This document shows positions 16,526 to 19,534 of a DNA stretch of 64,000 nt, piece after piece (position 1 is the first letter of the stretch; each line of letters begins with the position of its first letter). The notes under the pieces are model-generated. The model saw only the letters and a list, made by a program, of their open reading frames with translations. It was not told the origin of the DNA and made no database searches. The stretch comes from Octopus vulgaris. Taxonomy: Eukaryota. The position numbers were made by a program, and so were the translations under genes. Location of the stretch: contig OX597820.1 of the NCBI GenBank assembly GCA_951406725.2, forward strand, positions 8,742,001 to 8,806,000, written 5' to 3'.

Positions 16526-17272
16526 ATGGCGGCCACGGCCTCAAGCCCAGTGGAGGAAGATGTCTTCGACTGTTTTGATCGTTACGATAAAATCCCTACA
16601 AAAAACAGTGTCGCCTATATTTTCAGCAATGTGACTTTCAGGGACAACGAAACTCGCGAGGCTTCAACCCAAGACAATCATTTATTCAAAGAGGCATTAA
16701 TAAATCTTGGATTTAGAGCTGAAAATATCAAAGAATATGTTGATATGGAAACCAGTGATATACCGGGAAAATTCGATGAAGACTTTGATTATCCTGAGAT
16801 TGATTGTTTTGTTTGTGCAATTCTGAGTTATATGCTCCCAGAGAACCGTATCCGTACATACGACAAGGCCATACCGTTAAATAAAATACTTAGATGTGTC
16901 GAAGATTCGTCATATTTAAAAGATAAACCTAAATTAATGTTTGTGGTAACAACTCCTCGGCATTGCGATAATGCTATCGAAAAATGCGATGCTGATACCA
17001 TCGGATTTGAAGAAGAACATACCACCCCACGGACTGCAGATATGCTCGTCGTTTGTTCGTCCAGCGACAATACCACAAGAAGCTCATATTTTATGAAGTT
17101 TTTACACAAAGTTCTGGAAGAATGTGGTAACAAATATGATATTATGACGATTTTGGCAGCTGTTTCAAACTGTATTAAAGAGGAAATCGAAAGCAATGAA
17201 CAGATGCCCTGCATCATGTCGACGTTAACGAAGCAACTGAAATTCGAACGTAGTACCAACAACACAGTATAG
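16526..17272 (+). CDS. Caspase-like protein (peptidase C14A fold), predicted catalytically inactive, single exon, 248 aa
   Basis: Motifs VAYIFSNVTF, ALINLGF, DCFVCAILSYM (canonical ILSHG), LKDKPKLMFVVTTPR (canonical PKLFIIQACRG), ADMLV, SYFM and QMPCIMSTLTKQLKF. Uninterrupted ORF; no CARD/DED prodomain. Confidence 0.9.
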   Translation: MAATASSPVEEDVFDCFDRYDKIPTKNSVAYIFSNVTFRDNETREASTQDNHLFKEALINLGFRAENIKEYVDMETSDIPGKFDEDFDYPEIDCFVCAILSYMLPENRIRTYDKAIPLNKILRCVEDSSYLKDKPKLMFVVTTPRHCDNAIEKCDADTIGFEEEHTTPRTADMLVVCSSSDNTTRSSYFMKFLHKVLEECGNKYDIMTILAAVSNCIKEEIESNEQMPCIMSTLTKQLKFERSTNNTV

Positions 17273-17301
17273 TTTATTTTATATGGAACATTCTCCGACA
17301 A

Positions 17302-17690
17302 GGCGCAGGTAAAGAATACATACACCACCGGGTTTCGGCGTAACAAAAACCCTAAACCCTAACCGTCGGGGGTACTACTCGAGAACAGTGGTCCCGGTGC
17401 GCGCACTCGCGTAGTCGTGCATCCGTGTTTTTGTATGTTATTTACTTTGAGTTTTTGTGTTTTATTTACTTTGTTGAACAAAAATTATTTACTTTGTGTT
17501 TTATTTACTTCGTTTTAAAACATTATTTACTTGGTGTAAAATTTTTTTTATTTATTTTGTGTTTTATTTACTTTGCTAAGGTAGTCGTTGTAGGATCGAC
17601 TAGTTACGACTAGCTAGCGCGAGTGCGCGCACCGGGACCCCTGTTCTCAAGTAGTACCACCCTCGGGTGTACGTATTCTTTACCTTCGCC
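17302..17690. mobile_element. GG-terminal MITE (ccctaa inside) carrying a nested second MITE
   Basis: TIR ggcgcaggtaaagaatacatacacc / ggtgtacgtattctttaccttcgcc. No clear TSD. Confidence 0.7.
17371..17658. mobile_element. MITE, ggtactact family
   Basis: TIR ggtactactcgagaacagtggtcccggtgcgcgcactcgcg. 9-bp TSD accgtcggg/accctcggg. Relatives at 20363 and 39154. Confidence 0.85.
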
Positions 17691-18081
17691 ACCGTGATTT
17701 AAAATGACAAAATTCTAAAGTTCTGCCCTTCACACCCACTTGTGCCGTACGAAGATAAAATGTAGTTTGACATTTGAGACCTAAAACTTAATTTTTTAAT
17801 ATATTTTAATGTAGACGATGCATAAATTACAAATCCTAAACTTAAATTGTTAAACAGATAACTCTAGTATTTTTCATTATTTTAATTTGTTTTAATTGTT
17901 AAAATAATTAAAGCTTTATTCGATCTTTTAAATAATCTGTAATGAACAATTTACGCAGTTTTGGTTCTTAGGGCAATCAAGTCATTTGATGTCTAGAAAA
18001 ACGAATCAGAACTTATGTAATTATTCATTCTTAATCAAGTCCTACAGATTATCTTAATTGATGTTATAATATTTTGTCTAC

Positions 18082-18583
18082 GGGCGCATGTGGCGGAGAC
18101 GTAACCCGACCCCCCCCCCACCGCTGTCTATATCGAAAATTTTATTAGAAAATATCAATTTTTATGAAAGTTAAAGGGAAACAGAGTTTGTGTGAGATTT
18201 GGCTGTTATTTCTAGCATATGGATAGCCTGCTTGAAGGCTGTAGAATCGGGAGGGGAGAGATGTGTTTTTTTGGGGGGGGGGGAGCGGGGTTTTCTTTTT
18301 TGAAAAATCGAAATTTTACAAACAATTTTTGTTCAGAATCATAATCTCCGTATTTTTCTACGTATTTCACCCCACAAAAAATTCTGGAAAAATGAAGAAA
18401 TGAGAAAGTGGGGGGGAGGGGGGATTGAAGTTGCGATTTTTGCCAGTTTTTTTTTTTTTTTTTCAGAATCGAAATCACACCCGAAAAAGGGGTTTCTGTA
18501 AAAAAAAAAAGAAGAGAAAAAATTAATTAGAAAAAAAAGTGGGAGAGTTGGGTTAGGTTAGGTGGTCTCCGCCCTATCTGCCC
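18082..18583. mobile_element. Degenerate GG-terminal MITE-like element
   Basis: Imperfect TIR gggcgcatgtggcggagac / gtctccgccctatctgccc, subterminal ggtta repeats and poly-G/C tracts. Confidence 0.5.
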
Positions 18584-18711
18584 TATTTCCGATTGCATGC
18601 TGGTAACTCACAAAAAGGGACCAAAATCCCCAAAAGAATACTACTCACACATCTGAGTGTTGAGCTGATTTTGAATTTTGGAAATATATTAAATATTCCA
18701 TATATATATAT

Positions 18712-18820
18712 TTCGAAACGAAGGAACTGAATTTATTAAGCTTTGCCCTTGTGTAATGACGTGAGCTGAGAGAACCTGCTGATAACCAGGAAGTAAAGTT
18801 GGACTTGTGTGGATTTCAAC
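18712..18820 (+). promoter_or_regulatory. Putative promoter of caspase-like gene 2
   Basis: ttcgaaac (18712), CRE-like tgacgtga (18757-18764) and ETS-type caggaagt (~18787-18794). Same order and similar spacing as the gene 1 promoter. Confidence 0.5.
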
Positions 18821-19534
18821 ATGTCTGACTTAACCGCGGTAGATATCATGAAGTATTTCGCTGTTTATGAAATGACACAAAATAAGAGAAGAGTAGCCTA
18901 CATTTTCAAGAATAAACCGTTCCCAAAAGACGAAGAAAACATTCGAAATGCCTTAAAAGTGCTTGGATTTAATGAAACAGATATCAAAGTACACACGTTC
19001 GAAGAAATGCCTATGGTTTCTAAAGAGTTTAATGACGATGATATTGATTGCATTTTTTGTGTAATTCTGAAAAATGTGGAATTGGATAACGAATTTACGG
19101 ACGTGGCGGAGGTTCACAATTTGCTTTCTTATCTGAAGACCGATAAATGTCCATTATTAGCCGGAATACCTAAATTAATTTTTGTTGAAGCTTCGCGAGG
19201 AAGTAAGCCTGATACAGCAGAAACCCAGCCGAACGTTAATGAAAACGAGGAACTAATTTCGAAATGTCAAATTGAGGAAGATACGCTGCTCTACTTTTCA
19301 TCGTGCCTTGGTTATCCATCTTTTAATAATGAAAGTAATGGGTCGTGGTTTATTAGCACCCTAAGTAAAATTTTGGTAAAATATGGCACCATTTACGAAA
19401 TGATGGTACTTTTAACAGGTGTTTCTAAGCATGTTGCTTCGTTCGTATTTAAAAGCGAAACCCTGCCCGAATTCTCAAAATGCAAGCAAATGCCCTGCAT
19501 TATGTCGAAACTAACTAAACAACTCAAGTTTTAA
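18821..19534 (+). CDS. Caspase-like protein (peptidase C14A fold), predicted catalytically inactive, single exon, 237 aa
   Basis: First ATG at 18821 (caacATG). Motifs VAYIFKN, ALKVLGF, DCIFCVILKNV (His lost), CPLLAGIPKLIFVEASRG (QACRG Cys to Ser), GYPSF..NGSWFI and KQMPCIMSKLTKQLKF. AATAAA at 20058-20063. Confidence 0.9.
   Translation: MSDLTAVDIMKYFAVYEMTQNKRRVAYIFKNKPFPKDEENIRNALKVLGFNETDIKVHTFEEMPMVSKEFNDDDIDCIFCVILKNVELDNEFTDVAEVHNLLSYLKTDKCPLLAGIPKLIFVEASRGSKPDTAETQPNVNENEELISKCQIEEDTLLYFSSCLGYPSFNNESNGSWFISTLSKILVKYGTIYEMMVLLTGVSKHVASFVFKSETLPEFSKCKQMPCIMSKLTKQLKF

Follow-up and report, generated by a model that had tools for sequence, protein, structure and literature searches.

How two genes that encode whole caspase domains without the catalytic residues could persist as intact reading frames among transposon debris is the question raised by a 64,000-nt stretch of Octopus vulgaris DNA (contig OX597820.1, C7:8742001-8806000), called the window hereafter and the reference for all unprefixed coordinates. 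Gene A (16526-17272, + strand, 248 aa) and gene B (18821-19534, + strand, 237 aa) each run without interruption, with a spacer of 1548 nt between them. Both exceed the cut-off of the Peptidase_C14 profile (PF00656; 76.7 bits for A and 101.2 bits for B against 21.4), and a domain profile search detected no CARD or DED in either protein, in agreement with the first-pass annotation of this DNA, which had described a same-strand pair about 1.5 kb apart consisting of little more than the caspase fold. Only transposon remnants flank the two genes; the surrounding frames, of long interspersed nuclear element, mariner-type and long terminal repeat (LTR) retrotransposon origin, are all fragmented. On the evidence of sequence comparison, A and B are a real, selected pair of pseudo-caspases and a convergent case of dead caspase paralogues. 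For their role, the favoured explanation, to which we give a probability of roughly one half, is that these dead effector-type caspases act as non-cutting dimer partners that may tune active paralogues.

Based on alignment to the solved structures of caspase-7, -6 and -3, the catalytic His and Cys positions are occupied by Tyr102 and Thr143 in A (motifs ILSYM and VTTPR) and by Asn85 and Ser125 in B (ILKNV and EASRG), so that the dyad was lost by different substitutions, as had been read from the translations. The dyad is missing in all four A-type and all three B-type proteins tabulated. No invariant His or Cys near the catalytic positions that could replace it was found across the orthologues of A and B, and the His146-Cys147 pair of A was rejected as an alternative dyad because it is not conserved. 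Of the Arg-Gln-Arg set of the S1 pocket, which we take to be the residues that accommodate Asp, A retains the first Arg alone (R44) and B retains none of the three. The losses extend to the active-site loops, presumably corresponding to those named L1, L3 and L4. In A, about 6 aa of L3 and about 9 aa of L4 are deleted, while L1 and its Arg are kept; in B, about 12 aa of L1, including its Arg, and 3 aa at the His loop are deleted, and L3 and L4 keep their length, L4 being the least conserved part of the protein (4/16 residues invariant). All of these deletions are in frame and common to the respective orthologues. Judged from the alignments, A and B have shed opposite sets of active-site loops, and A would be unable to build a substrate groove because L3 and L4 are deleted.

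That catalysis persists or has been rewired, for instance with B as a serine hydrolase that uses Ser125 and another His, or with the dyad restored by RNA editing, we regard as extremely improbable. EASRG is invariant in the three B-type proteins, as are His58 and His99, and two paralogues of the same clade combine the catalytic His with Ser for Cys. The predicted secondary structure, however, puts His58 in a strand and His99 within a helix, off the canonical His position; A has no conserved His there, and B lacks both S1 arginines and the glutamine. By our own reasoning, the codons TAT and ACT in A and AAT and TCG in B are not convertible to His and Cys codons by A-to-G changes.

AlphaFold2 models built on 97-row alignments reached mean predicted local distance difference test scores of 87.6 (A) and 92.5 (B), and their best matches are caspase-7, -6 and -3 structures (template-modelling scores 0.7-0.76; for A, Z 25.3 and a root-mean-square deviation of 2.3 Å over 210 residues). 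Both proteins are thus predicted to keep the complete two-subunit caspase fold. Low confidence in the A model is confined to the inter-subunit linker (aa 148-172; 16967-17041, + strand), which is modelled as unstructured and is nevertheless the most conserved stretch of A, with 22 of 25 residues invariant across three lineages (permutation test, p 0.018 after correction for the scanning window). It keeps an Asp-Ala pair, a predicted cleavage site, which stands at the same place in most active relatives, whereas this motif is gone from the linker of B.

The conserved linker raises the possibility of a bait, in which the A linker would serve as a competitive substrate or sensor, or A or B would titrate host IAPs or pathogen inhibitors, with no need for a heterodimer. 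For comparison with the A linker, those of two orthologue pairs among the paralogues match at only 20 of 29 positions. Between sibling species, A differs from its orthologue at 10 of 212 core residues and two paralogues differ at 3 and 1 of 236, as an arms race could give, although such fast change would fit relaxed selection equally well. Active-site-directed inhibitors bind the groove, which is deleted in A; B keeps L3 and L4, yet L4 is the part that it conserves least. The strong constraint on helix α5 and strand β6 described below likewise goes beyond what a pure linker bait would need, except for folding. We consider a bait rather unlikely, and the earlier proposal that the pair lures pathogen caspase inhibitors is weakened by the absence of the substrate-groove loops from A.

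Evidence for selection comes from the orthologues and from the comparison of the two genes. The orthologues of A are 95% identical in O. sinensis (core region), 69% in O. bimaculoides and 61% on a further contig; those of B are 70% identical in O. bimaculoides and 64% on a further contig, and a protein database search returned no B protein of O. sinensis. All of them are intact, 234-256 aa long and without the dyad. In a test made among these already-dead orthologues only, columns conserved in 17 active relatives were invariant more often than variable columns, both in A (54/71 against 60/131, p 3e-5) and in B (49/69 against 69/142, p 0.003). When neutral evolution was simulated to the same protein distances, counting stops without indels, all three frames remained free of stops in 23 of 6000 runs for A and in 18 of 6000 for B; about 5.5-5.9 stops per gene were expected and none is observed. 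The ratio of nonsynonymous to synonymous rates (dN/dS) was estimated by a simple NG86 three-point calculation for the branch of each gene, with paralogues from the same genome as reference. It came to 0.42 (0.28-0.61) on the A branch and 0.36 (0.23-0.56) on the B branch and does not exceed the values of three paralogue branches (0.53-0.67).

The C-terminal strand had been singled out as the best-conserved block, and this was borne out. A and B share 30% protein identity overall and 14 of 15 residues in the last strand, the predicted dimer-interface strand β6 (aa 226-240 of A, 17201-17245; aa 223-237 of B, 19487-19531; both + strand), and this match persists despite many silent differences. Over α5 and β6 together, the proportions of nonsynonymous and synonymous differences between A and B (pN and pS) are 0.18 and 0.70, against 0.47 and 0.59 in the rest of the domain. 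Across orthologues, invariant sites in α5 number 14/16 in A (p 0.008) and 10/16 in B (p 0.61), and those in β6 number 12/15 in each gene (p 0.06 each); these regional p-values are uncorrected. At the level of the coding sequence, these comparisons demonstrate purifying selection on A and B, strongest at the α5/β6 end. The suggestion that intact frames amid broken transposon frames imply selection therefore stands, with a dN/dS of about 0.4, conserved columns kept and the transposon frames in pieces.

The same data bear on plain decay, in which A and B would be duplicates from the birth and death of caspase genes whose frames survived by chance or under weak constraint. The family does produce many broken copies (C5 has at least six loci with interrupted frames, and fragments occur on C26 and C28), the branches of A and B are the longest in their clade, and the orthologues beyond O. 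sinensis share only 61-70% identity. Against this, the dN/dS intervals of both genes exclude 1, site conservation after the loss of the dyad is non-random, the expected stops are absent (indels not counted), and the deletions are all in frame and common to orthologues. Decay is accordingly a very improbable explanation.

The origin of the pair was examined against the caspase expansion in this genome. The PF00656 search gave 83 matches from 90 candidates, a lower bound, mostly clustered on C5, C19, C26 and C28. Among 52 long frames (50 uninterrupted frames of at least 230 aa from fetched loci, plus A and B; the set excludes genes with several exons, fragmented copies, the matches on C14 and C24, which the seed profile did not recover, and one C28 fragment), 38 have both His and Cys, 8 His only, 1 Cys only and 5 neither, so that 14/52 are dyad-defective; two of the 52 are without the last strand. 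A and B fall inside a clade with C19 and C28 genes in a tree of 61 rows (support 100/98) and in a tree of 33 rows (100/100), the latter leaving out L040, L053, C20, C26 and most rows from C5. The O. vulgaris genome contributes 16 long frames to the clade, and both catalytic residues are kept in 10 of these. A and B form separate orthologue groups on long stems, and the 33-row tree neither supports nor rejects a sister relationship between them (approximately unbiased test, p 0.31). The closest matches of both are all from Octopus where labelled. The idea of a lineage-specific pseudo-caspase family thus holds as to its lineage restriction; it fails as to a separate family, since A and B are two of 16 frames in a clade with ten dyad-intact members.

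An intron-free coding frame is common to A, B and all 14 long C19/C28 paralogue frames, and, being present in all clade members, was inherited. In both genes and in 13 of the 14 paralogues, a CCGGAA/CAGGAA-type box precedes the ATG by 21-41 nt, against a background of 37 in 1066 60-nt windows counted with a slightly narrower pattern. Before A it reads CCGGAA (16504-16509, + strand), at the same place as in clade paralogues, and before B the box of this shared type is CCAGGAAGT (18786-18794, + strand). We take the CCGGAA box to be ETS-like, and in A it may have a promoter role. On the 3' side, a 30-nt block directly after A (17273-17302, + strand) matches 19555-19584, behind B, at 80% identity, and a second block (17895-18035, + strand) shows a weak likeness to 19951-20089 (94/150 columns, z 3.2); no overall similarity emerges when the 5' flanks of the two genes are aligned (z -0.3). 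Because the upstream box and the 3' flank blocks are shared, the flanks point to DNA-level duplication of a gene whose frame was already intron-free, and the derivation of A and B as separate retrocopies, put forward at first, is not upheld.

A retro-origin of the clade founder is possible. Multi-exon caspase-3/7 exons lie at C7:81.06-81.12 Mb (L038, L058 and L059), with 67-73% identity to Dreissena caspase-3 and a last strand that begins with QMPC, as in the clade of A and B; the 33-row tree does not place this clade with the bivalve orthologue of the multi-exon gene. The branch dS of A and B, at about 0.9-1.0, is four to seven times that of paralogue branches (0.14-0.23), which could reflect older lineages, a faster-mutating locus or homogenisation within the clusters.

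Other defective members accompany the pair in this genome. L006 (C19:7039201-7040100) and L005 (C19:7110911-7111816) keep the His and carry Ser for Cys within EASRG; they are candidates for dead decoys or for altered catalysis, and both O. sinensis and O. bimaculoides have conserved members of the L006 type. Three genes encode the Ser of EASRG with AGT, TCT or TCG, and the change from Cys to Ser therefore probably occurred more than once. Both catalytic residues are missing in L053 (C5:76009892-76010827), L052 (C20:19886600-19887430) and L040 (C28:6313691-6314494), of which the first two are solitary with long branches and the third has a loop L1 deletion like that of B. A cluster of 16 long caspase frames at C26:33.70-33.81 Mb (L041-L050) has an N-terminal extension of about 100 aa that is CARD-like by eye, and in six of these frames the His is kept while the position of the catalytic Cys is encoded by TAT (Tyr). 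Octopus is known for heavy RNA recoding, and an editing switch from TAT to TGT (Cys) by adenosine-to-inosine editing is possible, plain mutation being the simpler reading.

The transcript structure of the locus qualifies the description of the genes as intronless, which is correct for the coding frames and probably not for gene A as a whole. The O. sinensis orthologue of A has two isoforms with different C-termini, X1, which equals the form in the window, and X2, which ends in F-E-R-N. In the window, a donor after base 17252 and an acceptor before 19923, the nearest of seven fitting sites and one with a long pyrimidine tract, would give an F-E-R-N-stop end. The corresponding intron of an A isoform (17253-19922, + strand), whose donor fits O. 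sinensis X2, would contain all of B, and the candidate terminal exon (19923-20063, + strand) has AATAAA at 20058. RefSeq isoforms usually rest on RNA evidence. B would then probably sit within an intron of one of the A isoforms. In O. bimaculoides, the accession XP_014774641 was applied to the B orthologue as version 1 and to the A orthologue as version 2, which hints that the gene models for A and B overlap in that species as well. The F-E-R-N end of the O. bimaculoides protein was not taken as splice evidence, since paralogues end in similar genomic words.

B probably has its own promoter and its own start, because an upstream box of its own stands before it and the spacer ahead of it contains 18 ATGs; with so many ATGs, translation of B by scanning from a read-through message is unlikely. 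Palindromic CGGAAGTACTTCCG and TGACGT-type words, which in our assignment resemble ETS sites and cAMP-response elements, also occur upstream of A and B (16267-16281, 16469-16477 and 18757-18764). An insertion resembling a miniature inverted-repeat transposable element (MITE), with nested inverted repeats, is located just 3' of the stop codon of A (17302-17690, no strand assigned), and a partial second copy follows B (20362-20473). Its arm is a common genomic repeat with 1687 candidates genome-wide, and a splice donor in the 3' untranslated region common to A and B was rejected, as the copy after A lies in this repeat arm. The public O. vulgaris model CAI9725199.1 (P0005; 19203-26412) joins the first half of B, to just after EASRG, to a gag zinc-knuckle frame that belongs to an LTR retrotransposon at 25.7-28.5 kb. 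Since the orthologues are full-length, this fusion is a probable annotation artefact, although a real chimeric transcript is possible. A search of sequencing runs listed none recorded as RNA that contains this locus. At least half of the sampled words of 16400-19700 were present in 20 of 24 run rows, 14 of these 20 only guessed to be RNA, with word shares of 0.85-0.92 in assemblies of 11-119 million letters, and we do not take these matches as evidence of expression. Elsewhere, no convincing long coding frame was seen by eye within 10 kb on either side of the window, and a Ser-rich frame at 38455-39066 (+ strand, 203 aa), without a Pfam or Atlas family, is possibly an exon of an unrelated gene.

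In the favoured explanation, A and B would pair with active paralogues through the conserved last strand and shift how readily these switch on. The Asp-Ala site in the A linker may be cut by an upstream caspase, and this cleavage could decide whether A props up or blocks the active site of its partner, as for c-FLIP(L). Because its linker site is lost, B would pair constitutively, without being open to cleavage, and would more likely serve as a brake.

Several points weigh against this explanation. Effector caspases are stable homodimers, and heterodimers would need co-folding. No active caspase adjoins the pair, the nearest other PF00656 match on C7 being 72 Mb away. The β6 and α5 elements also belong to the structural core and would serve homodimers equally, so that their conservation does not single out heterodimers; the enrichment of β6 taken alone gives p 0.06 in each gene, and α5 of B is not enriched. 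Part of the time span covered by the dN/dS branches may predate the loss of catalysis, and dS on them is near 1. Neutral nucleotide divergence of 15-19% would also give the orthologue identities of 61-70%, the orthologues come from protein databases, which cannot show broken copies, and A changes faster than two paralogues between sibling species. Finally, for the nematode precedent CSP-3, the anti-apoptotic phenotype was not reproduced (PMC3591282).

In another explanation, A and B homodimers or an A:B dimer would form a scaffold or binding module with a job unrelated to caspase control. The two genes stand in tandem, away from all active relatives and with probably overlapping transcripts; their loop deletions are complementary, and their last strands are nearly identical at the protein level only. 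On the other hand, A orthologues read QIPY where B and the A of the window read QMPC, so that the match between the two genes is not fixed from species to species; no partner or extra domain is evident in either protein, and the tree test neither supports nor rejects their being sisters. Such a scaffold is unlikely in our estimate. Tuning of active paralogues could also be elaborated into a division of labour within one overlapping transcription unit, in which splicing would choose between a cleavage-gated A and an uncleavable B. The pair might then be the oldest tier of a graded repertoire of dead and half-dead members (His+Ser, His+Tyr, Cys-only and double-dead; 14/52), which in combination would set the threshold for death or immunity of about 38 active paralogues; we offer this as speculation that is decidedly doubtful.

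Parts of this picture were already known. Wang et al. (2024; PMC11543851) list 12, 26 and 25 caspase-3/7 and caspase-3/6/7-like entries for three Octopus species in Supplementary Data 1, among them the B orthologue XP_014774641.1 as 'Ob CASP3/6/7 like2' and the A orthologue XP_036360370.1 as 'Os CASP3/6/7 like21'. The main-text passages of that article on catalysis, pseudo, decoy, active site and QACR hold no remark on dead octopus members. Likewise, the word 'inactive' does not occur in the accessible text of PMC9389742, which covers squid caspases. A full-text search with the accessions as terms gave 0 matches, and a literature search found no description of dead octopus caspases, with subscription papers mostly outside its coverage, as were some supplements (PMC11431876 and one of PMC11543851). 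The cataloguing of the orthologues and the existence of dead caspase regulators are therefore prior knowledge. No mention of the dead state was found in the literature covered, and the opposite loop losses, the conserved linker of A with its loss from B, and the probable position of B within an A intron are new details. No principle is overturned, dead caspase paralogues being known already. Free-standing pseudo-caspases derived from effector caspases are on record chiefly from flies, mosquitoes and nematodes, few of them tested, and the octopus pair adds a further independent origin. The opposite loop losses provide a natural experiment on which parts of the fold a regulator needs. For annotation, the proteins are labelled caspase-6, caspase-1-like or CASP3/6/7-like, and studies of gene expression in octopus may thus mistake dead regulators for executioners.

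Among known systems, FLIP(L) undergoes cleavage within its pseudo-domain, and the heterodimer ratio decides whether it activates or inhibits; like A, it has both catalytic residues replaced and keeps the linker Asp, which in FLIP is cleaved (PMC7586951). In contrast to A and B, which have no prodomain and belong to an effector-type clade, c-FLIP(L) carries tandem DEDs and descends from the caspase-8/10 lineage. CSP-3 of Caenorhabditis elegans is reportedly small-subunit-like, with the whole active-site region missing, whereas A and B are predicted to keep the full two-subunit fold. CSP-2 and CSP-3 were reported to inhibit CED-3 activation (cited in PMC3591282). Coral caspase-X likewise contains a caspase domain without His and Cys; α5/β6 was named as its dead-active interface, and the dead domain was modelled to dampen the active one (PMC4715348). 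In caspase-X the dead and active domains are fused in one chain, whereas A and B are free-standing genes; no fused dead-active form of them was seen, the frames being single-domain with stops and the orthologues of similarly short length (no search was aimed at longer fusions). Neither gene belongs to the FLIP, CSP-3 or caspase-X families. A parallel in descent is CASPS18 of Aedes, a dead copy that arose by duplication of an effector-type caspase and was proposed as a regulator of its paralogue (PMC4840389, PMC3141678), being described as a decoy that enhances CASPS19 (PMC4840389). Compared with CASPS18, A and B are of independent molluscan origin, comprise two divergent dead genes with no adjacent active paralogue, and have lost both dyad residues plus whole loops. 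With their duplication from an effector-type clade, the lack of a death-fold prodomain and their retention under selection, the sequences of A and B fit the effector-derived decoy type in anatomy and origin.

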